In this document: in pieces, positions 11,634 through 62,223 of the stretch
How positions within the stretch are numbered: the first letter of the stretch is position 1
How the letters are laid out: every line of letters starts with the position of its first letter
Origin: Seison nebaliae
Taxonomy: Eukaryota
Direction of reading: 5' to 3'
Assembly (NCBI GenBank): GCA_023231475.1
Contig: JALJEE010001737.1
Location: 1 to 64,000 of the forward strand
Length of the DNA: 64,000 nucleotides
The notes under the pieces: model-generated
Seen by the model: only the letters and a program-made list of their open reading frames with translations
What the model was told of the DNA's origin: nothing
Databases searched by the model: none
Position numbers and translations under genes: made by a program

Positions 11634-13961
11634 ATGTCGGCAACCGATCTCACAGAACATATGTCAATACCGATCGTCATCATCGCGTTTCTCGGTTGCA
11701 TTACCAATACTATATCGATAATCGTACTCACTCGTCCCTCATTAAAATTATCGACGTTAGATTTTCTTCTTTCAACTTCTCTCATCTTCATTTCCATATT
11801 AGATATGTTTATTTGACTTTCATGAGCGTGACGGATTTATGTGCTTCGTTTGCTTCTTTCCTCACTTATTCGTCGAAAGCACTCGTTTTATTGAAGAGAT
11901 CAATGGGAGAATCGGATGAACTCAACTACAATACACTCCTTCTTCTCAATGATACGACTAATCATTCATCGGAAGCAGTGCAGTATGAGAGTGTGATAAG
12001 TGATAAACTTATTAGTGTTTTTCGGAATATTTCTTGTTATTCTACTCCATTCGCTTTAACACTTCAATGTGTGTCTGTTTGGATAACATTGGCATTCACA
12101 ACAGATCGCTATATAAAAATTAGTCGGCCTTATTTGAGCAGACACTTTTGCACTCGACAACGTGCTGCACTCATTCTCAGTGTCATCTACATCATCGCCT
12201 TGTGCTATCTAATTCCTCAATTGTTCGAGTATCATATTGAGAAGATTGCTATAAAAATTAACGATAAAGAGATTGTGGAAGAGTTCGTTAGTCGAACTGA
12301 ATTCGGAAACAATAAACATTTCCAAATGTTCATGATGGCCTTCTATACGTTGTGTGTGGCCTTCATTCCATTCATTACCATTTCCATCATGAATGTCTGT
12401 CTAATGAAGATTACGTTAAAGAAACGGCAATCCATCGAATTGACCCAAATCAACTCAACACATTTTCAACAAATAATTAATCAGAATAAAGGTGACTCCA
12501 TCAAAATGAGTTGTCCAAAAATCATTTGGAAATTACCGAAAGATGTCGATTCTGAGAATTATCAATTACTTAATACAAATGAGATAGATCAAAAGAAATG
12601 GAATTCTTTATCTCGCAAAGTCTCCAACGGATTGATTCGTGTACAATCAAGTATCAATTTATTGAGAGGTGTTCTCATAAGTAAACGATTGAATCGGGCA
12701 CGAATCCGAACAAACGATCTGAATATCATGCTCATTAGTGTTATTTTTGCATTTCTCGTATTTACTTGGCCGTCAGCCTTCTCCCAAACATTTTTTACAA
12801 TATTCGATCCAAAAAAATATTTTAATCATCAAACTATTCTGTTCATGACTGATTCGGCCAACCTCTTCATGGTGATTAATTCCTTCATCAATTTCTTTCT
12901 TTATATTGCTTTTGGAAAAAGGTTTCGGAAGGAATTCTATCTGCATTTCTGTTCTTGCTGGTTAAAACGTTATTATCGCACCAAATATTCGTTTGTTTTC
13001 GATAATAATAACGACTTGAATCGACAACCGAATAATTACAGTAGATTCTTCAACAACAATAACAACAACAACAATAAAAGAAATCGTTTATTAAATGAAG
13101 ATGATATTAATGGATTATCTTCAATTAGTCGAATATTCTCTTTCTTCAAGAAGAGAGAAACGATGTCAACAACAACGAAAATGTCATCGATGCATTTGGA
13201 GACGGAAATGGAACATGAGACAACTAATTCCACACCAATATCTTCTTTATTATCTAATCGCAATTCGAAAAATAAGAATGAGAGGAGACACTCCATTTTT
13301 TCTTTATTCGTAGGAAGACTGTCATTCGATCGTACAAAGTTTCGAAATTTTTAACGAAAACATCATCTCATATTCGATTTCTTTCAGCATAGATCATAAC
13401 AATTATCGAAATAGTCGACGTCATTCCCAACACCATCAATCGACAAGTGCGCGGGAAATGTACAATATTTTGAGAAGGAAATCTCAATATTTCTCTTACT
13501 CCGATATCCTGAAATATTATGAGTTAAAAGAAAGACAATCGGATGATCATATTCGTCATAAAAAACGTCAATCGGAAGGCAATCTGCCTAAACCAGAATT
13601 TACCGGAAATCTTCATCTAACTGATATTCCCTCATTCATTAACAGTGAAACTGAAGAAAATATTCCATATGAGGATGAATTGTCCCGTAGAACCGAAATG
13701 GAAACGCTCAAGCCAACATTGAATGGGAATGAGAATATCGTGATAAATTATCAAAACGTTCCAATTAATTCAAAAAAATTGATCACCGACCACACAGAGC
13801 AGAATAACAATTTCGTCAATTTTGAAGAAGAGACTAACAACGTCCCGAAAAAATGCAGAAGAAAATTCTCAGATATTTTTATTATCAAAATCGTCGAATA
13901 TCTTTTACCCCGATGGTTATTACGTCCATCTCTATCGAATGATTGTAGTTTACAGACTTGA
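11634..13961 (+). CDS. Rhodopsin-class neuropeptide GPCR (FMRFamide/sex-peptide-receptor-like), 3 exons; introns 11756-11802 and 13339-13387
   Basis: TM1 (IPIVIIAFLGCITN) splices in frame to TYVYLTFMSVTD. TDRY motif; TM7 NSFINFFLYIAFGKRFRKEF. The second intron joins ORF 13458-13961 in frame as a long C-tail. Confidence 0.85.
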
Positions 13962-14143
13962 GAGATATGTTACTGTTTTTTTTTATTAACAACAAAAATA
14001 AATAGAGTTTATTGAAAATAATTAAGTTAATTTAGTGAATGTTCGGGAGAGAATGTTTTTCGTAAAGCAATCCAATCTTATCAGATGTATTAATAATTTT
14101 CTTGTTTCCATTGTCACAAATCATCATTGACATTAAATTAAAA

Positions 14144-17113
14144 TCATGCAATTCGTAATGAATCAAATCGATTTGTTGGAATAAATTGTTTTCCTTCATA
14201 CTCGTTCATCAATTCAGCAACAGTCGGGAAATTGACTGCTAATTCATTGTTACATTTAACACAGACAGGAAGATGGAAATGATGATGGAAACGAGAACAA
14301 TTCATCAGATATCTAGCTGTGAAAAATAACTGAACGGATTGTTCGTCGAATAACTTCACTTCTATCATCTTTCCACATTTCCAACATCTTTTCTTCCCAC
14401 TATTGAAATTGAATAATGAATGGAAAGAATCATATTTCATTATTGTTTTCTTCGAGAATAATTTCATATTCCATTCTGACAATTTCTTATCTAATTTTAC
14501 GAGATAATTCTTCATCAAATAATTTCCATTTGACGTTGTGGGATGTATACTATAATTGTTTAATTGGATTGTCAATGGTCTCCATAATATGTCCCATGAA
14601 CTGAATTCGTAGGCCACATTGAACCAAGAGAAGAAACTATTTTTCCGATATTCGATATTGTTCTCTTTTAAGACATTGATCAAATTCAATGAAAATGATA
14701 ATTGATGATCAATTGTTTTGACTGAAATCTTCTTCATTGCAAAATCGATGTCTTCCATCCATTCCTTTAGATAAATTTTGAGAAGACCAACTAAATAAGA
14801 AGAAAGTTCGATTAAATTGTCATTTGGTTCTTCATTTGAATCGTCTCCCATTAAAGTCTCATGTATGTTAAGGAGGAATGTGATGAAGATATTATGGAGT
14901 TGGAGTATCTGATTCTGTTCCACTAATTGCTCCAATAAATTATCTGTTATTTTACTCAGATTTGATGTTTGCGTATCATAACTATCGAAAATGGATTCAT
15001 ATATCGATGAACATTCGATTAAATTCTCTTCTGGAAAATCGAATACGTCAAAATTATTTTCTTCTTTCATCTCAAACTGTCGATATGGTAACTGTTCGTC
15101 CAACAACTCTATAACTGCCTTCTCTTCATTATTCGATATTTCATCATATCTCAAAATTTCGAATGGATTCAAATAATCATAATATGATAATTGTAAATGA
15201 TTCCATATATCGTTCATACTGATAATTGAAAAAAATAAATTAAATGAAATTAAGATTAATTAAAACTTTTCTCTCTGATCTTCTCCTAATCGACTTCGCA
15301 GAAAATTAGGGAATAAATTGGAGAGATGCAAATGATAAATGTCTCTAATAAATTGATTATTGAATTCGAATAATTGAGGATATTGATTTTGTAATTGCCA
15401 TACACAATCTAAAAACTAAAAAAATTGTGAAAAAAATTGAGAAGAAAGAAAATTTTTGAAAAATAAAACTTGAGTGAAAATTGGGGAATATTCTTTCGGA
15501 TTGTACACGGCCAACAATTGACACCGGTCATAAAATTTATGTCCAAATTGTATCCAATCTTTATCGATTAACTCCTAAAAATTATGAGATTAATATGAAA
15601 TAATACATTAATAAAATTTAAAACCATAAATCCATTCATTGTTCGAGAATGTGGAGAGAGGAGTATTTGTGTCAATGAAGTACATTGTGAAGTTCGATCC
15701 CATCCATCACTACAATGTACGAGTACATGACTGAAATCGTTTTCCATTTTCTTCAATGAAACAAAAAATTATTTGAAAATATTTATGAAAAAAGAAAAAA
15801 CATTCGCTACGAAATAAGCCGTCCTCAGAACCAAATCCAAATGAGTAAACCAATCTGATTCTTTGATTCCATTGAAATAATCAGTGAAAGTGAAAGAAGT
15901 CATTGAGGAAGAGAAGATCTTCTCCATTATCTTCTTTCGATTATCCGAATCAGATGTTAACGTTTGATGTATAACTAAAAGAAGATAAAATGATTTATAT
16001 ATAACAGAATTTTAACCTGTTGAGAATTCTTCGAATGATGTTCTCATTACATGAATATTATCGATTGCTGAACTTTCAAAATCGATTGCTGGAAAATCTT
16101 TACTAATCAATTTTTCTGTACCTTTACCTCTCGCCCGATTAGCAACCACGTTCAATAATGGTCTAGTATCCATAATCATCAATTTCTTAGAAACGGTTTG
16201 ATCAGTCATATTCGTTCTTATAATGTGATGTAATAAACTACAATCAGTTGTTGTCGATCCGCTAAAACCCAAAATCGGTTGAGAAGATCGACATAATGAC
16301 GTGCTATTTTCGTGAATAAATGTCGCAACAGGAAATCTGGTAGCTGAACGGAAAGAGCAACTATTTCGTATATCAAATACTGACAATTCTTTTGGTAATA
16401 ATAATAGTTTTGGATATGTCTCACAAAACTGAAATAAAAAAAATTATTTGAAAATAAATGAAAAGAAATTTACGAACGTCGTTCTTGATAACTGACCATT
16501 TGTTGTGGTGAGAGAACCGTTCATATAAATCGAGAGAATAAAGTGGAAGTTTCAGTAAATGGAGTGAAGATGAAATGCCAAAATTCTTCTGAACATTTCT
16601 AGATTGGAATGGAGTATTTTCACTTTTAGCTACATCTACAGAAAAAAAATGAAAAATTGTGAGAAAGTTAATAATTGAACTTCCGATATGGAATTTGAAA
16701 TTACCCACTCCAGATTTCTGGAAAAGAATATTCCATGATAATTTGGTTCGTAACGTGAAACTTTTATCATAATTCGTCGGAGTATCATTCACTTCCGTTG
16801 AATCGAAGAAAAAAGATAAGGGAAGAATAATCGATTGATTTGTACTGATGATCTGAATAGAGAGATATGGAATGGAATCATTGAATTTCTTAATAATCAG
16901 AGAACAATTTAATTTGTTTGGTAGTTCACCTTTTCCCACATATAACTGATATTTGTCGGAAGGTAAGATCAATTGGACAGTGTCATCAAATTGATCGTTC
17001 GCTGAAAGTTTCGATTCCAGTTTCTTTTCAGATAATTTCTTCATATTCTCTTTATTCTTCTTCTTTTCATTTGGTGCTTGATCCTTTTTGAACCGAATAC
17101 TCACATTGATCAT
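14144..17113 (-). CDS. Myotubularin-related phosphoinositide phosphatase (MTMR6/7/8-like), at least 7 exons, with an intact catalytic motif
   Basis: Spliced product contains FCETYP, LCRSSQP, DTRPLLN, IDNIHVMR, VLVHCSDGWDRTSQ, DWIQFGHKF and SPIFTQFLDCVWQL. Six GTT..AG introns restore the frame. Start codon uncertain. Confidence 0.88.
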
Positions 17114-17961
17114 TTCTTATGAATAAGTTTCTTGATAAAATTGTCCACGACTTTTTATTTACATGGAACTACCATATTTCTTTCCTTTATACCATTTGCT
17201 TAGGCGACCATTTTAAACATTATAAGTATACTCCATGTCTTCTAGATAGTCACGATTTGGAAGGAGTTCGATTACCTAACAATCAATCTCGAATGTCCTT
17301 ATTTATTACGTTCTCATTCTTAACTATTATTAACTTATTCTCAATTTCTATTTACAATAATAATGTTAATGATTTCTATAATGTTTCAATTGTCAGAGTA
17401 ATAATCGGATGTTATTGATCGGATGTTAATGCATATTGTCATTATATGATAATGTGAGTTATCCGTCACTTATTGGAAATTTGACCAAATTTAATTAAAA
17501 CTTACTATTAAAACTTTTTAGTAGATTGACTTTTATCGTTCATTTTGATTTTTTCCTACCAATAATAATAATTTACATTTAATTCAAAACATAATATCAA
17601 TGCCATCAACAATTTTCAACAGTTATCATAGAACATACAACATTAACTAAACAATCCATTTAATAGCATTCCGTGACTTTTTTGTTATATAATCGTATCT
17701 CAAATGAAATTGCTGTGAAATCTTTCAATATCTTTTGTAATTTTTTTTCATATGCATAAAAATTTCTACTGTTCAAGTTCGTTTTCCTTGAAAGATTTGA
17801 CGATTATCATAAAAGCCGTCGATTAATTTGTACTTTATCTTCCTCTCGACAATCACCCCAGAGAATAGAATGATTAGCGAAACGAAATGTCCACAAAATA
17901 TAACATTGAGAAAATATGAAGAAATATTATTTCGTCTTTTCACAAATAGATTATACTGTTT

Positions 17962-20338
17962 TCAATTCATTTGTAGTTGTTGTTCTTTCTTCAAAACTAA
18001 AGTGTTATATGTGGAAATAATTCAATTATATGTGGAAGTTTAAGAGAAAAACTTTCTATTTCATCTGCCAACAGTCTCCGGTGGCCTAATTTGTCGATAC
18101 CCATTTCTTTCAGGTCCTCTACTGTCAATTGTTTAAATAACTCGAAATCGATCTGTTTAATGGCTAAGTGTTAAATATCTTCACAAAAGAACTTTAAACT
18201 TCATGTTTTTTGAATAGAGCGCTATATTTCATTAAAGTAAGTCTTTCTAAAATTTGTTGAACGGTCCATGGTTTGACATGTCTCGTTGAAGAATGGAGAT
18301 CGCGGAGACCGTTCCACTTTCTGGAATTAGAGTGATTTCGTGATAAGGATGATAATGATTTATGTAAATTAGTTTCTTTCTTTTTCGGATGACGATCGTT
18401 TTGTAAAAGAGGCGACATTGAAGATTGGAATAAAAATTTCTCCCGATTAAAAGTCTGATTAAAATTTTTCTTCATTGACAACTTGGAGGTTAACAAGTAG
18501 GACGGGATTGAACTAGAGAACTTAAACATATGATCATTTTCTGATGGTTGTCGTTTTCGATCATTCGACGAAGATAACAAATTTTCTTGATTACGATCGT
18601 TCAACATTTTCTTAATTTCTTTCGAAACACGAAAATTATCGGAAATCTGTTTTGGTCGTGCTGTCGATGATCGTGAGAGATTTGAGATTTCCGGATCTCG
18701 ATTAGACGAATGAAGAGAAAATCTTTTTTTAAATTTGTCGACTGTATAATATTTTTCCATATCTTCCGATTTTTCTGATTTATCCTCGTTCACTTGTACA
18801 GATTTTCTACTTGGAAACATTTCTTTATTTTCTTGTTCTTCTACATTCTCCTCCAAAGCTGGAGGATTTTGTTTATTCTTCTGACTAATTTCCTGATTAT
18901 TAAATTGTTGATATTGAACACAATTGTTTGGATCAATATCATAGAATCCATTAGATTGATGAGAAGCAATAACAGGAGTGTAAATAAAAGATGAGTAATA
19001 CATATGAGAACAATGATAATCCATTTGCAATGCGAATGAACGACAAAACTCAACCATAATCTCCGTATTCGCTTCAATCGTTTTGATCCATAAACACCAT
19101 CGAGAATTATTCAGTTCCACTGTAAATTGTGGTGGTAATATGCCGACAGGTAAATGATTGACTAAATTGGACAGAACATATTGAGAGATAGAATGATAAT
19201 CACAATTCACTAAATTGATATTGATCAAATGGAAATATTGAAATTGGATACAAAGAAAATCGTCTAATTTTAAACGAGATGAAATTATTTGATCAACATT
19301 CCCTTGAATACACACGTGCAATGTTCCAAAATTTTGCAGATTATTCCAATATGGAATTTTATGACAACTGTGAGTTCTTATCGTTTCCGCCACTAAATGT
19401 GCATTGTGATTTTTCCTCAATTCTTCCACATTATTTTTCTTAGACGGTTCATCATTTGACGTCTCGACTAACAACTCATTCTTCCCAATATTATTCGCAT
19501 TATGACTGTTATCATAAATTGATATTGTTGCTCCGTTACTGAGAAACTGAATATATTCCAATACTGAAATGATGTCACACGATTTGAATGTTGTTTGTGA
19601 AATTTCTGTGTAAATCTTCAAAAATCTTCGTAAATAATTCATCTTTTTTTCATGAAGAAAATTGATAATTGGTTGGAGTCTTTCCTTCATTATCGGCTTG
19701 TAAACTTGAGATTTGAGCCATCGATGGAATTCGAGTTGAAGACTCATCGATTCCTTGTCTGGATTGTTAAGAGTGAAAATTGAATGAATAATCTGACAAA
19801 TCTGTCGTGTTAATTGAATATGGAGAACGAGAGAACGAATAGTTAAATAATAAATCTTATTATCTCCATTGGTATCATCATCAGAATTATGATTTGATTT
19901 AACGGTTTTCGGTTTGATCATCATGGTAATTTGGTTTAGTGATTTTTCAATCTCATTTCTGTTACCTTCATTGGACGAAGTACCGTCAAAGAGGATATTG
20001 AGTGAAAATTGAATTTTAATAAATTCTTTTATTTGTTTCAATAAAATTTCCATTAAATTCTCATCCTCAATTAAAGTATTATGGTGAATGCTCATCACTA
20101 TAGTTATGGGTAAGAAACATCTTAATGTTTCTCGTGCATTATTCACATCATCCAACGAACCTGAAATAGAAACAATATTCGACTTCGTTACAAATCCTCC
20201 ATCCAATTTATTATTATCAGGAAAATGGATCGAAGTTCTCGTACTCTCCATCAACTTATTTATTTGTTCGCCACCTTTCCCTATGGCATGGCTATGGTGC
20301 ATGAATGGAATGTCAACTAAAAGATGAAGGATGGACAT
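17962..20338 (-). CDS. BICC1: Bicaudal-C-like KH + SAM RNA-binding protein, 3 exons
   Basis: HSHAIGKGG...IHFPD...KSNIVSISG KH domain. The SAM domain is completed by spliced exons (KYSALFKKHE|IDFELFKQLTVEDLKEMGIDKLGHRRLL). Confidence 0.82.
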
Positions 20339-21385
20339 TTTTGGTTGATAATTGAATTTGGGTTAAATTGAACGAGTCGTTGAAATGGGAATGTATTAAA
20401 ACTTTTTTCAAATAAACAGTGAAAGAAAATTTTACATATTTATTAGTCAATTCGAGTTTCTATGCGCAACAATCTTCCGTTTCCTTATACCGTTTCCATG
20501 ACGATGAAATAATAAACTAAAATTTATTAAAATTACGTTCAACAAATATTTTCCTCCATTATCGAATATCATTGTCCTTCGATTTTTATTGATGGTGACC
20601 AGGCTGTTTAATACCTTTGAAATATTTCGTTTTTCTTTAATTAAAATCAATCAACTAAATGAAATCATGTTATATTTACCGAATTTCAGTTACAATTTTC
20701 AATTTTAATAAATTTATCGATACTATTTTGAATTTTAAAAAAATTGGAGATATGATTGATGATTGTTTTAATGTTTATAATGAGGGTGAATCGAAAGGAT
20801 TGAAAATCGAACATATTTCGTAAAAGAATTAAAGAATAAAACAGATTTTTTGAAAAAATAAGAAATTGAGAAACGATGCAAATATTTGATCGAATGTACT
20901 ATAACTTTATATATGAAATTAGATGAAAGAATAAGAGAGAATGTAATATACATAATAAATGAAGGAAATCATTTTTTTGGAATTGATGAGAACTAAAATG
21001 ACGAAACAATTCCAATTTCATCTTCTCAATTAAAAGTGGAACAACGTTCACTATTCTCGTCGAAGGAATTGGAGAATAGATGATTGAATAAATACAGATA
21101 AATTATGAACAGATGATATTGTACTCGATTCGTTTATTCGAATCTATTCGTCCATCATCATTATGATATTGTCTGGTAAACGATCACCATAACTTTGTTG
21201 TTTTTCTTAACAATCCAATCGACAATATGAGAAATTAGAAAAAAGAAATTAAATTTCTTCTAAATTAACTTTTCATTTCTTCTTCATGTAATTGAATGAT
21301 TTCATGTTCATTAAGAAATTGGAAATTCTTCTTCGATTTCATTACATTTGGAGCTATTATTCACACAAAATATATTAGAGAGATA

Positions 21386-24300
21386 TTAATTCAAGATAAA
21401 TGTTTTGGAACCGTTATTGATGGTGAGATGACCATTTTCAAACATCTTCTTCTTGTCTTTAAATGAAAGATTGATTGAGCGTTGAGTCCTTTCATTCAAC
21501 TCTTCCACATTACTATTCTTCTCAGGAACACAAACTTGATTACACAAATTTAATGCATCATCTAAACGAAAATATTCTGATGGTAATTGCACCGAATATT
21601 TGGGATTGGTAAATATTGGAGATCGTTTCATTTCTTCTTTGTTTAGACCGTCACATACGATGAGATGATGGAAATAAGAGAATTTAGTCCCTCCCGATCT
21701 CATCATCAAATCGGACAATTCTTCAATAATTTCATCCGTCATCGGAAACGGCATTCTACCAGAAGAATTATATTTCGCTGGCGATAATAAAATATCATTC
21801 GCTTTCTCTGTCGTCATTCCAATGAGAGAAGATCCGTTTGCCTTGAAGAAATAGAATTTGTATAAAATTAATAAATTTATTCAACTGTTCAATGAGAAAG
21901 TGGAGGAAATACTTCAGCGACAATGAGAGACACGAAATGAAAAAAAAAACTAAAAAATATTAGAAAGGAAATGAAGGATTGGAAGTTCAAAAAATTAATT
22001 CAATAAATAATCGAAATATCGAAAATGTGTGAGATGTGACGACGAATTTTTATTCGAATGTATTTCACTTTAAATTCCGATCGTTTATTCTCTAGAATGA
22101 AATTCGTTTCATTATTTTTCGTTAATTTCTCATTAATTTTTTCCTTTATCATCAATTTATCTTCGTCAATATTCTCTAATTGATTCGCAGATAATAATTC
22201 ATCAGATGTCATTTCTAATGGTTTTTCTGTAATTATCTTATTTGTCGGTGTGTTAATATTAGATGGATTAGATGATGGAGGATTAGATTCGACAGGTATT
22301 TTTTCAAAATTTTTCTTCTCTGTCGGTAGGGAGGCGAGGAGAAGATTTTTCATTTTCCATTTTTGATTCGATTGTTTATTGATTAGAAATGGATTATTCT
22401 TTACAAGTCCAAACTTTCTATTGACTATTGGAGAGAGTGATCCTAAAAGATTTGAATGAACAGTTCCAATAGAATTATTATTAGTATTCAATTTCTTATG
22501 TTGAATAGAATTGTGGAGTGCGGAAAATGAGAATTGTTCGAAAGGAAATTGATTCTTCTTGAAATGAGTGAAGAATGTCGAATGTAACTGCTTGTCCATG
22601 GTGAATGGTTGCTTCATCAATTTTTTATAATCCATAGAAGGAATTAAAGAGAAATAAAGTTGATCGACACCAACTTTGTCCGTGGAAGCCAATAAATGGT
22701 CGAGTAAATCGAATTTAGTTTCGAGTAATCTCTCCGAATATCGTCGAGTTAATGTGGAGGAAGTGGTTAGTTTATTTGATTTGGATGTAAGTCCTAATGA
22801 CTCCAATCGATTAATCTTTTTGTAAGGCATCAAAAGTCGCTGTTTATCATATGAGCTGATTTGATCGACATCACTCATATATGACAGACAAGAAGAATTC
22901 GAATTTCGATTACGACGTACTTTATTTCTTTTCAATGTTTGTGTATTTAGTTTCGGTGTTTGATTGAAATGTTCATTCTCTGGTTTTGAGAGAAATTCGA
23001 GAGCGATCTCACTTAATCGATTAATATCGACGAGATATTCTTGTGAATCACTTTTGTCTTTCCTCCATTCGATTGGTGTGTAAACGTAGAATAGACGGTC
23101 GTTATTATCTTGTAAGAATTGACTGAGTGTTGATAAAAATTTATTCATTTCATTCAATTTCACATTTTCGCCTTCTTTCCCCACATAAGACAAATTGTAA
23201 CATTCTCTTCTGATAGTTTCCTTCAAACTACTGCGCCGCCTTTTCCTCTTTTGATGAGTGAATTAATCAGTTAATGAATCAGAAGACAAATTGCCGTCAT
23301 GATGTATGCGGTTCAACCGATTAAAAAGAAAATACAATATCTCACATCATGACGAATGAGTATACTGAAGACAAATCGATAATAAAAATTACAAACAGAA
23401 GGAAAATTGGAATGGGGACGAAATCGACCGTAATTGGGACGGAAAAGAAAAAATAAATAATAATTATGATACTTATTGAATTAGAATTAAAGAAGAAATA
23501 ATAAGAAATTAAATGAGCACCAACTTCGAGAATTCGATCACCACGTCGCAAAGAGATATAGGGCCACCGGTAAATACTTCCTGCTTGACCGTAACAATGT
23601 TGTTGTGGATGTAGATAAACGTTCTTGTCACCAATATGAACATCTTGAATGAAAAGACCTTCATCTGATGGATCGGACTCATTCACCGAATTGTATAAAC
23701 CACCACAAACGGTAATGTGAATACTATCAGTCTTCGTTAATGGAATTAAACAATTACGGAATTTGGGAGGTGGGGGATGATGTTGCACCAACAATTTCAC
23801 AGGTCCCTCACTATTGACGATAGCTTTCACAGCATCTTCATGTGTAGCATTTCTAACATTCATCGAATTGACTTGAATTAATTGATCTCCAATTTGTAGA
23901 GTAGTTTTGGAAGCACTACCTCCTGGTGTTATTTTTGAAATGAAAACACCACGATTCTCATCAGAACCGAAAGGATGACTCCTATTATCCGCCCCACCAA
24001 CAATCGATAATCCAATCGATCCATTTATTTTATATATGAAAATTTCTTCGAAATTATTTTTGAATTTTTTCTCTTTCGTCGACGAGAAATGATTAAATGA
24101 AGTCGAATTAAGAATTGTCGGATCGATACTGGCTGATACATTCGGATTCACATTTACCGTACTTGAATCTGATGTGGTTGTCGTTGTTGTCGTTTGGGAT
24201 AATGCAAGTTTCGAATTTTTACTGTTGTTGTTTGTTGATCGTTCGATGAGGAGATCGAGAACATTTCCTGCATTTTTCAATGCTGCAACAGCCGCATAAT

Positions 24301-30587: not shown

Positions 30588-33009
30588 ATGCAATCTTCAA
30601 ACGGTAATGTCACTTCATCCCACAAAAATGATTTCTTCGAATTTGGAGGTAATGATGGAAATATCCATCCTGGAACTAACATCAAACCACGATATCCCGA
30701 AAGTAATAACGACAATAATGCTAACAAGATCATGTCCGCTGATGAGTTTTCTATGGATGACAATCTGAGTGATAAGACTAACCTTATCGTTAATTATTTA
30801 CCTCAAAATTTTTCGCAGGACGACATGAAAAATATATTTGGAAATTTGGGCGAGTTGCGCAGTTGCAAGTTGATTCGTGATAAGACGACAAACCAGAGTC
30901 TCGGATATGGTTTCGTCAATTATATGAAACATTCAGAAGCTGAGTTTGCAATCAATTCGTTGAATGGAGTGAAAATCTACAATAAAGTCATCAAAGTTAT
31001 TTTTTGAACCTTATCAGAACTTATCAGAATTTTATAAATTAAAATTTTTAAAGGTTTCTTATGCACGACCCAGTTGCGAGTCGATTAAAGGAGCCAATCT
31101 TTATATTTGTGGAGTGCCAAAGTCATGGGACTTGAATAAATTAGACGAATATTTTGGACAAAGTGGAAAAATAATCACTAGTCGAATTCTTTATGATCAG
31201 TCAACTGGACAATCCAAAGGAGTTGCCTTTATTCGATATGACACGAAAAATGAAGCTCAAAATGCAATTGATCAATTGAACATGACAATTCCGGAAAAGA
31301 ATTCTGAACCATTGACAGTAAAATTTGCTAATACTCCAGGACAATTAGGAATACTGAATAATCAGATTAAGAATGGAAATATTCTGACAAATCCGTTGGG
31401 ACAATTGAATGGGAATTTGGCGGGGAATATTGGATTAGCTCAATATATTTCTGCTGTGGCCGCACAAACAGGACTGAATAATTATAGTACAAGTCAATTG
31501 TTGACGTTATTGCAACAACTGCAACAACAGACGCCGATAGCGAATGGTTTACAATTCAATCCGTCGATGATGGTACAGAATGCTGCCATGTTCCAACAAT
31601 TGTTCAATAATGCATCAAATCTGCAGAAGTTAGTCTTCTAAATTTGTTTAGTGATTGGTGTTTGATATGAGTGATTCAATGAGTGAAATCTGTTTGAGAA
31701 GAGTTTTTAATGTGAATAACTTATTTGACTGATAAATGTGTAAAGAGTAAAAATTCAATTAATTTTCAATACTGTCGATGTGAATCGGATGACGATTGGA
31801 TAAAACAAAAAACTTGTGATTGTTTGTTGGTTTGTGATTAAAACGAATTGATTGTGAAGATGTTTTCTTAGTTTCGATGGATTTCGTTGTTTGAATTGAA
31901 TGAGTTGTCTGAATTATTTTCTTCGATTTCCTTCCTACTTTTATCTCCTTTCCACTATCCAATTTCTTTACTTATTTTTATTCATTTTCAACAATTTCTT
32001 TCCCTCTTCATTTTCTCATATTCATGCCCAAGTAAGTCCTAATAATAATAATAATAATAATGATAATAATAATAGAAATTTAAATGATTCTAATCAATTT
32101 ATCAACAGCTCAGCCACCACACAATCACAAATATCTCCAAATGACGCTGCGTTATTGATGAACATGTTAGGTGTTAACACCAACAATAATCAGTCGAACA
32201 TCTTCTCCCAAGGCAATGGCATGCAATCGACCTCATCCCAAATCGCTTTGGCTCTCAATCAGTTGCAACAACCGATGAATCATTCTCAACAACCAGCTAC
32301 ATCTAATTTGGGTAATATTTATAGTACGGATTCAATCGATTCATTGAATATGGTAAGCAGTAGTAACAACAATCCCAATGTTAACGATCAACGTCAAGGT
32401 GCTTCATTACTAATCCAGAATTTAGGGCCAGAAGTAAGAGAAAATGATTTATGGTCACTTTTTGGACCATTTGGAGCGATACATCAGGTCTTCATTGGAA
32501 AGGACGCAAATCAGAAAGGAAAAGGTTATGGAGTAATTACCATGAATAATTATAATGAAGCTGTGGCAGCAATTCAACGATTGAATGGATCAGAATTGCA
32601 TGGCAGAGGAATTTCAGTCACATTAGCTGGTGATCAACCAATTTTTCATAATTCCACCAACTCCAATATCAATTCCACTACTATCAATAATCATGGAAAT
32701 AGTTTGGGAATAAATACGAATGTGAACACTGGTGTCAATAATGGGGTAAACAATGCCGTTCTGAATGGTGGAGCGAATAACCTCACGAACAACATGGCCA
32801 ACCCTAATCAATCAACGAGTCAAGGAAGCAAATTGAATAATTCATTATTCAAAAATATGATTCCATCACCGGTACCAACGGTCGCCTCAGCTCAACATCA
32901 TACTCCAATCTCTATGTCGCAATCGGCACAAGCTGCATTGAATAAACAGTTATTGGAAATGAACAATCTCGTTTCTAATTCAGGAAATCAATCCAGTTAT
33001 TTCATGTGA
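30588..33009 (+). CDS. ELAV: ELAV/Hu-family RNA-binding protein (3 RRMs); intron 30996-31053 and a second intron from ~31629 to ~32035
   Basis: [73 protein letters not shown]. The acceptor of the second intron is uncertain. Confidence 0.93.
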
Positions 33010-33524: not shown

Positions 33525-36500
33525 TTAAAATAAATTCACTTTTCGCTTCTCCCGAATTTGTTTCCATGCTGGCAATATTCGAAATTCTTTCTTGCTCATA
33601 TTGAACAATTCGAAGAAAGATTTGTCTTTCAAACGATATATTGAATAGAATGCTGATTGCTGTTGATGCAGTTCACGTAATTCTTCAATACTTAAATTAT
33701 CTGCGTCATTCATCTTACATTCTGTGAGCATAGATGTCAACGAACGGAAATATTGTTCATCTTTCGTCGCTTCTTCATGTAAGAGCTCATCCCAAGGTAT
33801 CATCTTCCCATTATAACACCAACTATCCTCCAACGAATAATTATGTTCTGTATTGATGAGAAAATGAAGAAAGTCGAATGAAAAATCAATTAAACTTTCA
33901 CATAATTTGATCAAAGAAAATACTAGGAATTTCCTCATCAAATTATCAGTATAATTCTCATCAAACAAGAAATTGGTCGTATTCTTTCCATCCATATTAT
34001 TCAAGAGCCAAACTCCATTTCTCTTCTCATCATTTTTATTTCGATGTATTTGAATTATCAAAATAATTATTGCTATACAATAGATTAAGAAAAGAATTAG
34101 ATGAAAAAAAAACAAAATTAAAAATAACGATAATTTCCATAAAATTCTTGAAGAAGATGTTTCTCGTATCGATAATTGACACCATTATTGTGAGTTTGAT
34201 GAGAATATAATGTTAATGATGGAAGACATCGTTTTAATTGAATGAACATTTGAGTATCAGGTAATGATGCTTTTAATTTGTCATTACTCTTCTCCAAATG
34301 AGCACCGAAGACATTGACGATATTCCGTTGAATAGATCGTCGAAAATTTTCTTCGACTGAAATAGAAATAATTTGAATTTTTAAATTTGATAAAAAAATC
34401 ATTAACTTTTCACGGAATATTGTTGGGAAAAGATGTTTTCGATCAACTGACTAGAACTGTCAATTTTAGTTGGATGTTGAATTTGAAAATTATTTTGTTC
34501 TATTTCTATTCTCAATCGATTAATGGGAACGTCATTCATTGCAAGATGTTGAACAGATTGAATGATAAATGTATTATTTTCGGAAGTAGATCGATTTCCA
34601 TCAACATCGAGAATGCTCACTTCTTGAAGGAATAATGGTGATGGTTGTTTGGAGGAAAGAATGAGTAAATGAAATAATCGAAGGAAGACTAATGGTTCTT
34701 CGCCTTGACGGATACAAATGCAATGTCGTAATTTATCCTCTTTCTTCTTTAGATATTCGTGAACGAATAAATTGTTCAATCCACATTGTTTCGTTGATAC
34801 TTGTGATCCGTTCCATAGGAAATAGAGAACTCTCCCAAAAAAATTGATTTTTCTTCCTGTTTCCGTTTTTCTTTTTGGTGTAACAGTTAAATCATTTGAT
34901 ACATTTTTACCGTTTGTAGTAGATGTAATAAGAAGAAGATTATCGGAATTGTTATCTTTCGATTGGAAGGGATTGAAATTCTTATTGATTCCTAACCGGT
35001 TAGTTGCGATATTGACGAAATATGTCCATTTGATCAGATAAGAATGATTATCGTAGAATGTTTGAAAATTGGATTGAGTAATGTCAATCTCAGTCACACA
35101 ATGATTAATATCCTTTTCAATACTCTTCGACCAATCCTCTTTAATCGTATTCAATTGATAGAGTTGTTTCGTGTCAGTTTGAATGGACATAACTCGATGA
35201 TCATCTGAATAAATTATTCGATGACCAACACCGTTGAAGACATCATATCCTTCAGCGACCACTTTCGTCCGAAAAAATGTTTCCATATTGCCACGTTCTT
35301 CATTCCAACCAGTTTGATTAGCTGTTGAATTCTTTTCGTTCACTTCAATCGGATTATTCAATTTGTAAAGATCAACTTCATCATATGAATCGAGTGCTTC
35401 AATTTGACCGACAATTTCCAATGGTAATTGTTCGTCAAGGTTCAATAAATTCTCTTTAATCTTTTCTTCTTCTGCTCGTTTCTCTTCCTCTTTTTCTTCG
35501 TCTTCCATTTTATTCGAAGTTAAATCGTTCTTTGTCTCTAAACTATCTTGAGGCCAATCTCTGAATTTTGAACGGAATAAAACTGTTTCCATATTTTCGT
35601 TTTGTTTAGCGAATAATGTCCACTTCGGTCTACCTTTCTTTGATTTGAATTCAGTATCTTCAAAACTCTTCCCAATGAACAAGGGATTGATGCGACAATT
35701 ACTATAATCATATCCACTTTCATATAATTGTTCAGCGAGAATTTCGGCACTTTTCCTCGAATCGAATCGAGAGAAACGACCGAACCACAAATAGAATTCA
35801 CTACCAAAATCGAACAAAAGTATCTTATCTGATTTCATCGCTTTATATGACGGTACATGTCCACAATATTCTTCCAACGGAATTAATTTACCATCAGTAT
35901 ATTCATAAACGATATTTGTTTCAAATATCGCAATTTCAAATTTCTCATCTTCGTCTGGTTTTCCTGCCGTATTAACACAACCATAATCTCCTCCCAATGT
36001 CTTCCAAAAGAGATTATTTCTCACATTTCCATTTTCGCTCATTCGATCGGTAACTTCATCGATTATTTGAGAATATGAACCAGAATATGATTTTATATCA
36101 TTACTACCACATTTCCCAGACGAAGGAATAATACATCCAAGATCATGAGTTCGTTGAATATAATCGAACGCTTCTTGACATCGACATTTTTCTACTCGAT
36201 TAGTAAATCGTCCTATCCACATAAATAACTGATTCTTCAACACCAGAAGAAATGCGTCACCGGAATTGAGTGAAATAGCGATCGGTTCTACTAATCGTAA
36301 ATGACAAAATCGACGACCTTTACATTGTAGTAACATTGGATGTTTATATGGTTGCAAAGAGGAAGCTGGAGTAGACATTCCATCCATCCGTTTCAATGTA
36401 ATTTCTGATAAATTTAATTTTGTTCTCAAACCAGCTCGAGCTTCCAAACATAAATGTTTGTTCATTCCATTTTTCCCTTGTTTCTTATTTTCCGTTTTAG

Positions 36501-37360
36501 CTTTCGGAATCTCTTTCACTTTTTCTTCCATTTCCAATAAATGTCTTAATGAACTAGATGTATTGTGTCGTGGTGTAGGTCGAGAAAGATTTAAACGGAA
36601 ATTAGAAATAATTTTTAGATCTTCCGGTTCAGTCGATTCGTTACTTTTCTTCTCAATGTCAGTCAGATAATTCGGTTGTTCCCTTTTCACTTTTTCATTT
36701 CCAACTTTTCTATTATTCTTCTTTTTATCATTCAAATCTTCAGAACTATCATAAAATAATTTGAATCCTGTCATCAAATCGAACGAGGTTCCTTCTAAAC
36801 CATCATTATTTGAATCACCGGAATTGCAAGAATTTAATGGACTAAATGATCTCTTCTTATCTTTCTTCAATGATGTTGAATTAACTAAAAAACATGAGAC
36901 GGTCGGAAATTTGAAGAAAACTTGTTTTCGATCTTCCCAAACTCTTCAGAATTGGTCGATATGCTTTCGTGCCGATTTCTTTCCTTTTAACATCGTCAAG
37001 TTCTTGAGCTTTCACTATTGGAACATAAAAACTTCGATTTGCTTTTCGATCTCGAATATTTTCTTTCACATCTGAATCTAAACTTTTAGTTATATTTAAA
37101 TTAATCAAAATAAATTAACATTTTGTTGACGTTTCGCCCATTTGCCATTCAACAGTTAATTTCTCGCAGTCACTTTTCGAATCGACTCGATTTTTCCATT
37201 TCTCTTGAGACTGATTAAGTAGACTAAGTTTCTCTTTAATCGATCGATTACTCTTTGGTTTCTCATTCAAATTGTCATTTTGTTTTCCTATACGATTCAT
37301 CCATCTTTCATTACCTTCACGTTCTAGAGATTGAACTCGATCAGCCAATGTTAACTTCAT
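33525..37360 (-). CDS. SVIL: Supervillin-like gelsolin-repeat protein with C-terminal villin headpiece, about 5 exons
   Basis: PYKHPMLLQCKGRR...LVEP...LNSGDAFLL, LLFDFGSEFYLWFG, ETVLFRSKFRDWP; headpiece FFELFNMSKKEFRILPAWKQIREKRKVNLF. Confidence 0.88.
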
Positions 37361-42283: not shown

Positions 42284-45270
42284 ATGGATTTTCCGGTAAC
42301 CATGGAAATGAGTGATAACATCGAGGAGAATTGGACGAATATTCCGAAACGATCTGCTACCGAATTTGACAAAATCGAGGAACCTCGTGAATTAAACGTA
42401 AAAAATGATAGATTATATACAAGTACTATAATTTCGAGAGTTGATGAGTTAACGACTCTCGTTGACCAGAAAATTCCAAAATATTTAACAAATTTTGAAG
42501 ATTTCGAACTGAATTCTGGAGATATAAAGTTTGAAAATTTTTCCGAGATTTGTTCCAAAATCGTGGTGCCTAATGAAAAAATTGCGGAACTGACTGATTA
42601 CCTTAAGTTAATAGCGAAGCATAATGTTGATTCTTCGAAATTCTCTTCTTCTTCTGATAAATATGAGCAGTGGATATATACAAATATTGAGAAAGGTTTA
42701 GATGAAATACTTCCGAAAGTCAGTTGTTGGCTCCAAAAACTTATGTGTCATGTGGCTTACGAATCTCCGTTTTCTCCAGATCGTTTTTCGATGTTATTTT
42801 CGATCCATTTGATTATTGATGGATTAGATAAACGGAAGGCAGCGCTCAAAGATGAATGGAAGAATCTTCTTCAAATTTTCATTTACAACAGATGGAAGTA
42901 TTGGTATTGTCAATTCATTAAATTATTACAAGAACGTTGTAAGCAGCGAATGAATGATAGTAACTTAACAATATATCAACCTCAAAATGAAACTGTAGTT
43001 GAACCGACAACATTCTCCACTAGTAATTTAACGAACAATTTGGATTTGAATCAAAACGAATTGACGAGTATTATTAGGGAGAGTCGTCAACTGATCGATA
43101 AGGAAAGTCAGCAAATATTTGTCGATTTTGAAAAGGAATTATATAATGACCAAAATCAGTTGATTAGTGTTATGTCAAACTTTCATGATATGTTGAAAAA
43201 TGAACCTAAGAAAAAAATAGAAAAATATGAAATTTTTATCAACAAAATGTTCTCTGGACAGTTGTGTAAATGGATTAAAAATGAACAGACTACAAACATT
43301 CCTCATCAATTTGGAATGAATAACAAAGATTTTTTCATCAACATTCTCCAATATTATCTCAACTCAATTCTTAGACAATCAAAAGTTGACAGTTGTCAAT
43401 CTTTTATTTTATCTTCGTTAATTATGATAAATTTAGATAATTTTCTTAAAGGTTCCTTACTTATATTTTAAAAATCTTTCTTATGTTTCCATATTATTCG
43501 AATGAACATTTTAAGATTTATATCAATATAATCGGAGTTCAATCGAACTCTATAATTTAGAGAAGAAGTTGGAAATCCATCGTATTGGAACAATCGATTA
43601 CTACGTAACTAAAATAACGAAAGAAAAATTATTCAATTCGAAAAGTATCATTGAAATTTCAAATAAATTATTAACGATAGACGAATTCAGGAAGGATTAT
43701 CTAATAATATTTTCAAAGCTCTTCATCGTAATCAAATTATATTTAAAATGCACAATCATTTCATTCAGTGAGAAAGGATTCAATTATTTACTGAATAACG
43801 ACAAATTTACCACGGGAATTTATATAACGGAATTCGATATGATCGTTATTCTTTTACCAAAACATATTTTATTGATCTATCTAAATAGATGACGCAAGAT
43901 TTCTTTGACGAATGGAAAAATATATTCGACAGATGGTTAACAGTGTTGAAGAAGGATCAGAAGAGTGAACTTAATAATCATGTAATAGAATATATTCAGG
44001 AATTGGAAGAATTATGCTGGAAACTACCAGTTTCCCACATTTTCTTGTAATTATTTCAAATACATAATTCTTTAGAATGTTAAAATAGAAATTTATCGAA
44101 ATTTATATTTATCCAAAAAATATGAAGTCAAAAAATTATTATTGTGCGGAATGAAATGTTCAGATATTTATCCTTCAGAAAATAAAAGTTCGAATTATTC
44201 GAAGAACATTATTTTAATGTTTAATTTTAGATTTCGATTTAATTTTCGAACACGCAATAGACTCGATAATTCTAGAACCAATTCGATCTAAATTGGAAGT
44301 AGAACTGGAGAATATTCACTCATTGAAATCAAATCGGTTGAAATGTCGTATAATTATGATCTATCTATCAATTCTCATTACTGTATTTGTTCGCGGATGG
44401 ATAGATTTGATATCAAACCTAAATTTATATTTCAGGTTATTGGGAACGAATTTTAAATATTTTTAATATCGATAAATTGCAGATCAAAAGAAACATATCA
44501 ATTTTTGGGACATTTCAATTTACTTAAACAAAAAATAAATTTTAATAATGCCATTGTAAACTATCATCCCGCTATGATTTACTTGCAAAAAATATGCGAC
44601 ATTCTGCAAAATGAATCAAATAATCCTCAAATGAATTTTCCCGACCCCCATGTTCACCAATTTTATTCTAATTCGAAAATAATGTTCTTTTTTTTAGAAG
44701 TTTAAAATCCAAAATTTTCTATTCCATCAAAATGATGATGATGACGACAATATTAGAATTCCAGTAACTACATCGGCCTCCTTACCATTGATCGCTACAG
44801 TGGAGTGTAAAGATATGTGGAAGAAGCTAAATTTATCGAAAATATGGAAAGTTGAAGATAATTGGTATCGATTGAGATCAGATCCAATTGAGGAATCTTT
44901 TTGTTTTAAAATTTGTTGTTTGGCCTTTTCAAGGAGAATAAATGCTCATAGTGAAGTGTATCCGAAGCAAAATTCAGATATCGAATCAAATCTATACGAA
45001 ACATTGAACAAACAATTCAAAGAAACACGAATTGAAAAATGTAAAAATATGTTGAATAATTTCGATAAAGATCTGAATAATGTTCGGAATAGTAAAAAAT
45101 TTTTCTTTTCGTTTTAACTATTCTTTTGGAATATTGAATACATATTTTTTGATTTACTTTTAATTGCTTGATGGAAATTATTCTCATTAATTCACACCTT
45201 TTCACAGCCATTCCGTTTTCACATACATTGTCAGATACTATGGTTTATCTCGAAACATTTCTGTAACTGA
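42284..45270 (+). CDS. Multi-exon (about 8) alpha-helical protein, possibly CCDC142-like (CATCHR-type fold)
   Basis: ORFs at 42284, 43569, 44505 and 44788 plus small exons link in frame through seven GTT..AG introns. VRGWIDLISNLNLYFRSKETYQFLGHF and NWYRLR...CC resemble CCDC142 C-terminal blocks from memory. Last exon uncertain. Confidence 0.55.
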
Positions 45271-58523: not shown

Positions 58524-59529
58524 TTCTCCTTCAATTTCTTCTTCTACTACCAGTTTATTTTCCACTTTTCAATAAACCGGCTAATGCAACAACCACTTTG
58601 ATAGGAGGACATCCACATTCTCCCATTTCCATTATATTTCATTCATATTTCATCTAATGTATTCCAACTGGTATTAATCGTTTTCTATTTCGATTTCATG
58701 TCGAACTAGAATACAACAATTTTACAATAACATTAGAACAACATTGACATCTGTAGAGGAACAATTTTGCAAAATGAGATTACAAGTCCCATTTGGAATG
58801 AAATGAAAAAGAAAGGAGAAATTGGAATATGTGAGAATGACATGAAATTTGAAGAAAAATTATTTTGATTTTTTATGTTCGTGATTGGTGATGAGAAAAT
58901 GCAATTGAAATAAAAGCTTCTTTACATAATAAGAATTTTTAATCAGTTTTCTATTACTTGCTCAACGGAGTTTTAACATGTTCGGTCTAAACTGAAAGAA
59001 ATGATGTTGAATGAGAATGAGATGGACATGGAATAAATGTATTTGAAATGATGATGATTAAATAATATAGGTCGTTGAAGAGAACCAAACAATTATAACA
59101 ATACAACTTTCATTTGATGTTGAGTCGCATAAATTTAATTTCCACAATTTTCTTTTTGATTAATGAGAGAGGGAGAGAGGAGGAGAAATGTATTATGACA
59201 AAGTCGAACCATTGAAAGGATTTGATCAAACTTTATATAATTTTAAATAATAAAAAAATTATTTTGACTGAGTAAGAATTGATCTATTTGATGTGTGTAT
59301 GAGAAAGTTTGTATATATGTTTGAAGATATGAGAAGTAAATTAACGATGTATGCGCAATGAAACTATCCCAACTATTAGAGATGGCTCATGATTGATGAA
59401 TCGATGTCCAATTTCTTTCTCTTTCCTCATTTGCTCAGATACTCTTTCTCATCGACCAGATTACAATTACTAACTTCTTCCAACTCTCCCAGTGAACTCA
59501 ACAGTAAAATTTCATATTACACGTCATCG

Positions 59530-62223
59530 ATGAAGAACGAAGATGATGGGAAAATCGACTGTACTAAAGCAAAGAAACCACGAATAGTACAAGTTAAATT
59601 TATTTCTTTGTCATTCTTCATTTAAAATTGTGAAATTCAATGAATTTAATTCATTTCAAATAAAAATGACAATGGAAAAATGTTGTGAGTTAATTTGATT
59701 GAGCAGTTTTGAAAATAAATCAGCAAATTAAGTGGCAAATTTAGTGTTTTTATAATTATAAAGGGGATGTGTTTAGTGATATCGTAAAAAAATATTTCCT
59801 TTGAATTTTCATTAATTCTTTTTCTTGCAATTGATCAAAGAATTCTCTCGTTACTAAGGAAACATCTTTCATAATGTTAAATGATAAGAAGTCGGAGAAG
59901 AGTGTGGAAGGAGGAAAGACGAAGGAGAATAATCTCGTAAATTTTTTATTTTAATCATCGTTCTAAATCGCTCGTGGAAGAAGAAAGCATATGTTAATTC
60001 ACATAAATTGCATAAAATCCATCTGTTCTCAAATCATGAACTGTAATATAAATTACAATTGTTTTCGTTCATGGAAAATTTCTCGAAGAAGAAATTTGGA
60101 TTTTTTTATCGCACTTTAACGTGATTTAAAATTATTTTACTTACATAACAACAGTTTTCTTTCAACCTTCACTTTGCTTTAGTGAAAAGAATCTTATTAA
60201 CTTCACTCATCAATTGGAAATTGGAAATTTAACGTGAAATCAGTTTGATCATGTCTCCATTTCAGGTAAAATCGACAAATGTCGTTTTTCAAAAAACAGG
60301 AATTTCACGTAATCAACGAGGTCGTTCATTCGGAAGCAAATTTCGTGGTTGTACAATTTGGTTGACAGGTTTCAATTAATGAAATTTTTTTACTCTTTTA
60401 ATTATTTTATCAGGTCTCTCATCATCGGGTAAAACGACGGTATCTTTCAATATTGAAAAGATTTTAATTCAACATGGAATTCCTTCTTATTCGTTAGATG
60501 GTGATAATCTTCGATTTGGTTTATGTAAAGATCTCGGATTTACATCGGATGATCGAGCAGAAAATATTCGACGAGTTGGTGAAGTGTCAAAATTATTCGC
60601 TGACAGTGGAGTGATATGTCTCGTTTCATTAATTTCTCCATATCGTCATGATCGTGATGCAGCAAGAAAGATTCATAAAGCATCAAATTTGCCATTCTTT
60701 GAAATTTATGTAAATGCTCCATTAGCCGTTTGTGAGAATCGTGATGTGAAAGGTCTCTATCAAAGAGCGAGAAGTGGAATTATCAAAAATTTTACAGGAA
60801 TCGATTCTGCTTATGAACCATCATTGGATCCGGAAATCGAATTGAAAACCGATCAACTTTCAATCAATGAATGTGTAGAACGTGTTTTGATGGAATTGAA
60901 TATAAATGGTATCGTTCCCAATCAAGTCGTCAATCGAAATATTGAATTAATTGCAAATGTGGATGTGCAAAATTCTTTAAAAATCGAATCAGGAAAATTG
61001 AATAAAATCGATTTGAATGAAATTGATTTGCAATGGGTTCAAGTACTCTCTGAAGGATGGGCGACACCATTAACTGGATTTATGAGAGAAGCTGAATATT
61101 TACAGTCTCTTCATTTCAATTGTTTATGTGATGGTGAGATGACAAATCAATCGATACCAATTGTCTTGTCGATCGATGATGAGAAAAAAGAGGAATTGAA
61201 AGGAGCAAATTCTGTCAGTTTATATTATGAAAATCGATTAGTAGCTGTGTTGAAGACGATTGAAATATATCCACATCGACGTCAAGAACGTATTTGTCGT
61301 CAATTTGGTATGTCATCTCATAATCATCCCTACGTGAAACATATTGTGAGTAGTGGAGGAGATTGGTTAATTGGTGGAGATTTAGAAGTTTATGAAAGAA
61401 TTAAATGGAATGACGGTCTAGATAAATATCGATTAACTCCAAATGAACTTAAAGAGAAATTTCGAGAAATGAAAGCTGATACCGTTTTCGCTTTCCAATT
61501 AAGGAATCCCATTCATAATGGACATGCATTACTCATGCATGAAACTCGACAACAATTATTAGGAAAAGGATATAAAAATCCTGTTCTTTTATTACATCCT
61601 CTCGGTTTATTATTTTAATTTTTATTTAAATCAAATTATTAATATTATATATAGGGGGAAAAACTAAATCTGATGACGTTCCATTATCAGTTCGTATGAA
61701 ACAACATGCTGCTATTCTTGAAGAGAAAGTACTCAATCCGGAACATACCGTTCTTGCCATATTTCCTTCACCTATGATGTATGCTGGTCCTACAGAAGTT
61801 GGAAAAATTATTTAAAATTTTTTATTTTTCCATTTAATTCATTATCAGGTTCAATGGCATGCTAAAGCACGGTTAAATGCAGGTGCCGAATATTATATAG
61901 TAGGACGAGATCCAGCTGGTCTTCCTCATCCTGAAACTGGGGAAGACGCTTACGAAGCAACTCATGGTGGAAAAGTGTTGACAATGGCACCAGGTCTATG
62001 TAAATTGAAAATTCTTCCATTCAAAGTAGCCGCATATGACAAAATTGTGAAGAAGATGAGTTTCTTCGATATTACGAGAAAGAGCGATTTCATCTCGATC
62101 TCTGGTACGAAAATGCGTGCAATGGCACGAAAAGGGGAAAATCCGCCACCCGGCTTCATGGCCGAAAAGGCTTGGAAAGTATTATGTGATTATTATGGAG
62201 CACTTCCAACTCCGAAAGGATAA
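59530..62223 (+). CDS. PAPSS: Bifunctional PAPS synthase (APS kinase + ATP sulfurylase), 5 exons; introns 59593-60265, 60369-60413, 61605-61654, 61798-61848
   Basis: [71 protein letters not shown]. Confidence 0.96.

Follow-up and report, generated by a model that had tools for sequence, protein, structure and literature searches.

The purine at intron position +3 and the 5' end of the small nuclear RNA (snRNA) U1 hardly vary among animals. The +3U consensus that we found in print is that of Entamoeba, which is intron-poor and uses a strict motif: according to Roy and Bowser (10.1101/2022.06.08.495308), its donors read GUUUGU(U), with 88-90% being GUUUGU, and its U1 has co-evolved to ACAAAC with the ACAGA box of U6 unchanged. 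The same source describes U1 gene variants beside the standard form in Physarum. Here we analyzed the intron starts (donors) of a 64-kb stretch of DNA from Seison nebaliae (contig JALJEE010001737.1, positions 1 to 64,000), referred to as the window. Seison is a seisonid rotifer, a tiny animal living on crustaceans. The donor rule of the window introns is AN/GTT, where the slash marks the exon-intron boundary, and the dominance of GTT among the predicted donors was confirmed. A changed donor rule in this lineage is well supported because +3T far exceeds all backgrounds tried and orthologous introns of bdelloid rotifers carry GTA. Judging from the DNA, it is likely that the splicing machinery of Seison follows an altered rule in recognizing where introns begin.

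Intron starts in the Seison window

The window has a G+C content of 31%, and its introns are predictions. Three NCBI Seison proteins, SNEBB_002907 (NDUFS2), SNEBB_002913 (OPA1) and SNEBB_002903 (myotubularin), have exons 100% identical to the window, and their exact mapping gave a first set of 28 introns (tier A; 9, 12 and 7, respectively), of which 27 start with GTT and one with GTA (28968). An earlier sequence-only reading of the window had claimed that almost all introns start with GTT, including 8 of 9 in NDUFS2 with one GTA and about 12 in OPA1. Exact mapping returned the same NDUFS2 donors and 12/12 GTT in OPA1; the six all-GTT introns counted in myotubularin proved to be seven. Tier A introns are 42-65 nucleotides (nt) long, plus a single one of 135 nt. 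Sliding is possible for 0/28, an alternative in-frame GT lies at most 18 nt away for 6/28, and excision restores conserved protein in 28/28.

To guard against predictor bias, non-Seison homologues were placed with a spliced aligner lacking any +3 term. Ten NDUFS2 homologues put 8/9 introns at identical sites (7 GTT and the GTA), seven of them by 10/10 homologues and one by 6/10, intron 1 lying outside the homologous part. Six OPA1 homologues placed 4 of the 12 introns by 6/6 and another two by 5/6, every one GTT. Poorly conserved OPA1 stretches also drew scattered homologue calls, some non-GTT; one of these (57391, GTG) was made by 4/6 homologues with a flank identity of 0-1 of 8.

A second set (tier B) was called by a small gene finder whose scoring covers GT and ignores +3 to +6. 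It recovered 28/28 tier A introns and made 28 extra calls (22 GTT, 3 GTA, 2 GTG and 1 GTC). When trained without each gene in turn, it recovered 24/28 introns with 24/25 calls being GTT, and it still recovered 27-28 of the 28 donors after their +3 base had been replaced by A, C or G. Spurious calls on antisense and intergenic DNA (n=162) were 42% GTT, a control that the uncurated 22/28 clearly exceeds (p=9e-5). During curation, four doubtful non-GTT calls were dropped (GTA at 32032 and 45586, GTG at 23520 and 22068), one GTC call (63095) was swapped for a GTT intron joining two frames, and a single GTT intron of the BicC-like gene was inserted manually. This resulted in 24/25 GTT for tier B and 51/53 for both tiers together.

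The same finder returned the GTT introns proposed for the GPCR (2/2) and supervillin (4/4) genes. For the gene at 42.3-45.1 kb, a separate +3-blind frame chain gave 7/7 GTT, two of them already among the 53, in line with the seven GTT introns claimed there; the accompanying label CCDC142-like was not confirmed, a Pfam search of this gene giving no family match. Other counts were reproduced in part. Three of four claimed PAPSS introns were placed and the fourth (673 nt) was not fixed; ELAV and BicC each kept one GTT intron of two. The claimed Scribble donor and the second BicC intron were not fixed, nor was the second ELAV intron, which has several possible donors and acceptors and was left out of the counts.

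The strictest background, T after T within introns (0.56), gives p=1.8e-6 for 27/28 and p=3e-11 for 51/53. A comparison of +3T with background T had been put forward with the original claim, and within the window +3T is far above every background tried. In an acceptor-anchored count, the GTT share was 65% for upstream distances of 42-56 nt and 37% for those of 75-110 nt. Contigs from three DNA runs, possibly the window's own source, span 14000-28800 unbroken with 0-4 differences; they behave as DNA, with no intron joints, and carry no information on splicing.

Across the 53 introns, +3 is T in 51 and A in two, with C in 0/53. Position -2 is also strongly biased (A43 C3 G0 T7): adjusted for codon position, -2A is found in 40 of the 48 introns with a full frame vs 17.7 expected (p=5e-11). 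The sequence-only reading had missed this strong -2A, and likewise that Entamoeba offers a precedent and that bdelloids have a partial GTT class. It had described the last exon base as often A or T, which is only the background level (A20 C8 G12 T13; -1G adjusted for codon position, 10/48 vs 8.9 expected). Its claim of no consensus at +4 to +6 stands for +4 (A18 C11 G3 T21) and +6 (T 24/53), both at background; at +5, G was said to be rare and is in fact weakly enriched (9/53 or 17% vs 6% background, p=0.005), a weak residue. The pattern A.GTT, beginning at -2, fits 41/53 true donors vs 18/192 nearby unused GTs. The few GTA donors suspected, at 28968 and possibly at 62.4-64 kb, correspond to the two exceptions (28968 and 63405); both retain -2A, one with full exonic CAG.

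The introns end in GT...AG, have a median length of 49 nt, and are U2-type (major) by their predicted signals. Acceptors are T-rich (T 68% at -6), with T28 C14 A11 G0 at -3; 11/53 end in AAG (often TGAAAG or TTGAAG), vs 6% in the bdelloid set described below. There is at most a hint of a branch motif: CTAAY occurs 8 times vs 4.1 in shuffled sequence (p ~0.06), and A peaks 18-24 nt ahead of the acceptor. The standard AG/GTRAGT consensus is absent from these donors, +3R being found in 2/53 and -1G, +4 and +6 at background. A U12 type was rejected, as 0/53 introns have an RTATCC donor and 0/53 a CCTTRAY branch site.

Orthologous introns and candidate readers of position +3

A scan with an Adineta OPA1 protein gave 41 metagenome loci, 34 of which best match bdelloid proteins (81-98% identity). 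The eight of these 34 included in a quick OPA1 tree all fell within the bdelloid clade (Shimodaira-Hasegawa-like approximate likelihood ratio test, SH-aLRT, 100), and the scan found no monogonont or acanthocephalan DNA. The Seison branch in this tree is very long (2.4 changes per column vs ~0.1 for bdelloid tips), which fits a fast-evolving lineage. An intron counted as well anchored when both of its flanks were free of gaps and had at least 5/8 residues identical. This left 202 distinct bdelloid introns at 24 positions of one gene; the positions, not the introns, are the independent units.

GTA makes up 63% of these bdelloid donors and GTT 34% (68/202), with 7/24 positions mostly GTT. Since +5G is present in 64/68 bdelloid GTT donors vs 6/27 tier A GTT donors of Seison, +3T would need compensation in bdelloids, not in Seison. 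Bdelloid GTA donors lack +5G in 70/127 cases. The two bdelloid classes, GTTNGT and GTA (often GTAAAA or GTAAAT without +5G), are stable by position; the last exon base is A in 46/68 of the GTT donors, and the GTTTGT form is identical to the Entamoeba donor.

Six Seison OPA1 introns (55286, 56041, 57238, 57609, 58141 and 58392) share codon and phase with bdelloid introns, and a seventh position is shared in one of two alignments; the other six have no firm match among the bdelloid loci. All six shared positions are GTT in Seison. In bdelloids, 5/6 are GTA-type (0 T among 5, 10, 11, 9 and 9 sequences) and 1/6 is GTT (6/6). Of the 11 anchored donors in four non-rotifer animal loci, 10 were GTR and 1 was GTT, and the non-rotifer locus L002 has GTAAGT at two shared positions and GTTTGT at a third. 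Old introns, as placed here by alignment, differ at +3 in place between bdelloids and Seison, and the GTA-to-GTT change most likely happened on the Seison line.

It seems probable that Seison rewrote its donor code genome-wide to AN/GUU, through a changed U1 or U6 or through near-independence from U1 pairing. In this process GTA introns would have been converted in place, -1G and most +5G would have been dropped, and the bdelloid class of GTT with +5G would represent the intermediate state. We tentatively favor, as the reason for AN/GTT, a switch of the major-spliceosome +3 reader from purine to U, perhaps by a U-to-A change at nt 6 of U1 snRNA. This change is favored because such a route is on record for Entamoeba, whose U6 has not changed, because bdelloids look like a standard U1 with +5G-compensated GTT and Seison like the mirror image, and because variant U1 genes can coexist with the standard form, as in Physarum, giving a gradual route. 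The ancestor would have been bdelloid-like, its GTA donors forming a lenient class and its GTT donors depending on +5G. A variant U1 (6A) may first have served the GTT class, releasing its donors from +5G, and may then have allowed old GTA introns to drift to GTT in place. Short introns would be recognized by intron definition, with the T-rich acceptor setting the narrow window where AN/GUU suffices, and -2A would probably be read by U5 loop 1 and/or U10 of U1, with proteins stabilizing the very short duplex.

With canonical U1 in fixed register, true donors were not separated from the 192 nearby GTs (area under the curve, AUC, 0.555, p=0.11), and bdelloid donors scored higher than those of Seison (mean 13.5 vs 10.0). 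The higher AUC of an Entamoeba-type 5A6A U1 (0.79) was set aside: it reflects the comparison of T-rich introns with exonic decoys, as +4T is less frequent than the intron background. Whether coding DNA avoids splice sites gave no usable signal (A.GTT z=-2.1, A.GTA z=-3.1), being confounded by general GTA depletion. An Rfam search for snRNAs, run on the window and on 20 out of the 41 related loci, gave no match.

Several observations weigh against a U1 change, or against the wider picture of a converted code. The AUC of 0.74 for a 6A U1 is circular, separating donors by construction, and free-register folding separated donors from decoys with neither canonical (AUC 0.44) nor 6A U1 (0.53); pairing with U1 alone is therefore too weak in both cases. 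Outside GT, the two strongest pairs of U1 go unused (-1G, 10/48) or are weak (+5G, 17%), and +5G gives no compensation for a missing -2A (7/43 with -2A vs 2/10 without). A 6A change alone leaves the loss of -1G and most +5G unexplained, and the source on Entamoeba (10.1101/2022.06.08.495308) reports that U1 stays standard in most of the lineages whose donors are atypical. On the comparative side, L002 is GTT at one shared position, and outgroup support for the GTA-to-GTT direction comes from two positions only. From the proposal of a re-specified spliceosome in the sequence-only reading, the changed donor rule is retained, and U1 6A would be insufficient by itself.

A different reader is possible, though we regard it as unlikely: U1 would be standard or nearly idle, and U5 loop 1 (through -2A) together with the U6 ACAGA box or Prp8 would choose the donor later, the U6 base facing +3 pairing with U by G-U wobble or after a G-to-A change. 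Positions +3 to +6 are described as the partners of the U6 ACAGA box, and the end of the exon as that of U5 loop 1 (10.1101/2025.06.06.658024), and in yeast +3 faces G50 of U6, where +3C over-pairs and blocks step two (PMC11331412). Reading by U5, U6 or Prp8 would fit T being allowed and C absent at +3, and it fits -2A without -1G and the weak U1 pairing. However, U6 pairing normally requires +5G and +6T, and the window donors have these weakly or not at all. An unchanged U6 would not alone exclude GTA, as it tolerates +3A in other eukaryotes, and a changed one would strike every intron simultaneously.

Somewhat less plausible still is a model in which every snRNA has its standard form and AN/GUU is read by proteins (U1-C, LUC7, a U-binding factor or a changed Prp8), a U-pseudouridine contact at +3 being tolerated. 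Predicted duplexes with either U1 reach only ~-2 kcal/mol, which is in its favor, and precedents can be cited: LUC7 paralogues are reported to bias donor classes (PMC11842720), U-pseudouridine pairs to contribute in humans (PMC4856993), and a spliceosome without U1 to exist (PMC10158995). A merely tolerated +3U would nevertheless leave the near-exclusion of +3A and +3G unexplained.

It is very improbable that no reader changed and that constraint beyond GT was simply lost, with AT-rich, TpA-avoiding mutation filling +3 with T. Coding DNA is indeed poor in GTA (z=-7.7), T makes up 49% of intron interiors, and a T there is followed by another T in 56% of cases. This explanation is largely refuted in the window, as 51/53 far exceeds 0.56 (p=3e-11), the same introns are 40-51% T at +4 and +6 to +8, A freely follows +3T, and free drift would not retain -2A. 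A gene-prediction or assembly artefact is equally hard to sustain. A trained predictor, if one lies behind the NCBI models, could amplify a bias, and tier B was hand-curated, but non-Seison homologues fix identical donors, 24/25 of the leave-one-gene-out finder calls are GTT, the acceptor-anchored excess is present, and the DNA-run contigs are unbroken. Standard U1 pairing in a register shifted by +1 is known from humans, where GUUAAGU donors of this kind are rare, and it would place U at +3 (PMC4856993), but it was refuted in the window, where the expected flanking enrichments are absent and the predicted bases stand at background (-1A 20/53, +4R 21/53, +5A 17/53, +6G 3/53, +7T 27/53; AUC 0.56), and we give it almost no weight. 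Finally, it is barely credible that most introns stem from a single introner-like element that carried a GTT end and spread in a burst, since the absence of a firm bdelloid match for 6/12 OPA1 introns is outweighed by six positions common to bdelloids, by a best pairwise similarity among the 53 introns (score 19) inside the shuffled range of 14-19, and by the lack of any 4-nt target duplication in these 53.

Genes of the window

Pfam backs the families NDUFS2, OPA1, myotubularin, GPCR, PAPSS, ELAV (RRM), Scribble (LRR and PDZ), supervillin (gelsolin and VHP) and BicC (KH and SAM). The introns placed at each locus are collected in Table 1.

Table 1. Loci with placed introns in the window. Donors are given by their first position.
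Locus	Position	Strand	Introns	Basis
GPCR (7tm_1)	11756..13387	+	11756-11802, 13339-13387, both GTT	+3-blind finder, open frame, Pfam
Myotubularin SNEBB_002903	14144..17113	-	7 introns, 42-54 nt, all GTT: 16680, 16477, 16016, 15801, 15624, 15469, 15266	876/876 residues mapped
BicC-like	18153..18199	-	47-nt GTT intron within SAM domain	hand-placed from frame
Unnamed gene	21206..21411	-	21411-21354, 21269-21206, both GTT	+3-blind finder alone
NDUFS2 SNEBB_002907	28196..30022	-	9 introns, 45-65 nt: GTT 29972, 29794, 29630, 29368, 28672, 28527, 28398, 28284; CAG/GTA 28968	unique exact mapping; 8/9 also by non-Seison homologues
ELAV-like, first intron	30996..31053	+	GTT	+3-blind finder, frame, RRM matches
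Supervillin-like	33525..37360	-	GTT 37119, 36893, 34406, 34128	+3-blind finder; gelsolin, VHP matches
Unnamed gene (earlier label CCDC142-like)	42302..45117	+	7 predicted, GTT: 43392 (frame-neutral, least certain), 43452, 43845, 44030, 44188, 44436, 44652	+3-blind frame chain, identical at three penalties
OPA1 SNEBB_002913	54978..58523	+	12 introns, all GTT	unique exact mapping
PAPSS	59593..61848	+	GTT: 60369-60413, 61605-61654, 61798-61848	
Coiled-coil-like gene	62322..63999 (window end)	-	10 predicted: 9 GTT, 1 GTA (63405-63349)	+3-blind finder

In the BicC-like gene, the exon downstream of the 47-nt intron begins at SAM_1 position 29. Removal of the supervillin-like introns leaves a single open frame of 1211 codons, and the PAPSS exons tile the ATP-sulfurylase profile (1-54, 56-101 and 102-211). 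The likely first PAPSS intron (59593-60265, 673 nt, GTT) was placed by eye, is uncounted and is far longer than the others; the exon after it begins with GTAAAA itself. In the coiled-coil-like gene, the hand-set GTT intron 63066-63020, replacing the GTC call at 63095, merges two predicted genes into one frame. A perfect canonical candidate donor, CAA/GTAAGT, is located at 32032 (+), directly ahead of the asparagine repeats with which the last ELAV exon region starts.

Scribble (23200-23530, -) ends within its third PDZ domain at ILE/V, and the next long frame (22000-23262, -) opens with a possible PDZ remainder and may be part of the same gene. An intronless bifunctional CoA synthase-like gene (CTP_transf_like and CoaE; 37648-39423, -) is found amid intron-rich neighbors, and 45583-48987 (-) is a single-exon frame of 1134 codons with low-complexity tracts and no Pfam family. 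The region 800-3300 contains broken frames, for which Pfam gave no matching family. By eye, we take 2567-3151 (-) to resemble a Tc1/mariner transposase and 796-1402 (-) the start of a retroelement endonuclease, neither being confirmed by Pfam. Short contigs of low depth, ~85-93% identical to coding parts of 14000-28800, suggest that the same runs also contain a second diverged strain or a relative.

Relation to known donor systems

The literature searched, with most subscription journals outside it, contained no Seison donor consensus and no GTT-dominant animal. In the available text of the Seison genome paper (PMC8351084) snRNAs are not mentioned and RNA-seq is stated to exist for Seison nebaliae; Seison is not named in the main text of PMC11347168 and PMC10639083, whose supplements, outside the search, could hold rotifer donor tables. 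The shift of the U2-type donor code seen in this one window of animal DNA is real and strong, and apparently it is so far undescribed. An intron-rich animal in which +3 has switched and most other donor information is lost bears on how a donor set and its reader co-evolve, and also on the minimal signal that defines a cut site. At a practical level, this lineage would be misjudged by gene predictors built around GTRAGT and by snRNA searches built around ACUUAC.

Larvacean tunicates (Oikopleura, Fritillaria) are animals with non-canonical introns and changed terminal dinucleotides. Their splicing code is also reshaped; Seison instead keeps GT-AG and changes +3. Human shifted or bulged U1 registers also yield +3U donors, but these are described as rare (PMC4856993) and need a downstream +6G that is absent in Seison. 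Bdelloids provide a partial state for comparison: their introns are also short (median 52 nt) and their acceptors T-rich, GTT donors form a sizeable class, and GTA donors often lack +5G, but in bdelloids GTA is dominant, GTT nearly always comes with +5G (GTTTGT, GTTAGT, GTTCGT) and there is no -2A bias (37%).

The closest likeness is with Entamoeba, where the +3 purine has been replaced by U at genome scale in U2-type GT-AG introns; Seison is sampled here in one window. Entamoeba, however, is an intron-poor protist with a strict donor of 6-7 nt, whereas Seison is an animal with 9, 12 and 7 short introns in three genes, no +4U or +6U consensus, weak +5G and strong -2A. Donors of the window share the +3U of Entamoeba (51/53) and lack its strict GUUUGU(U) (+4T 21/53, +5G 9/53, +6T 24/53). 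Seison thus works like the Entamoeba transformation at +3, yet is not a member of the strict-motif system.

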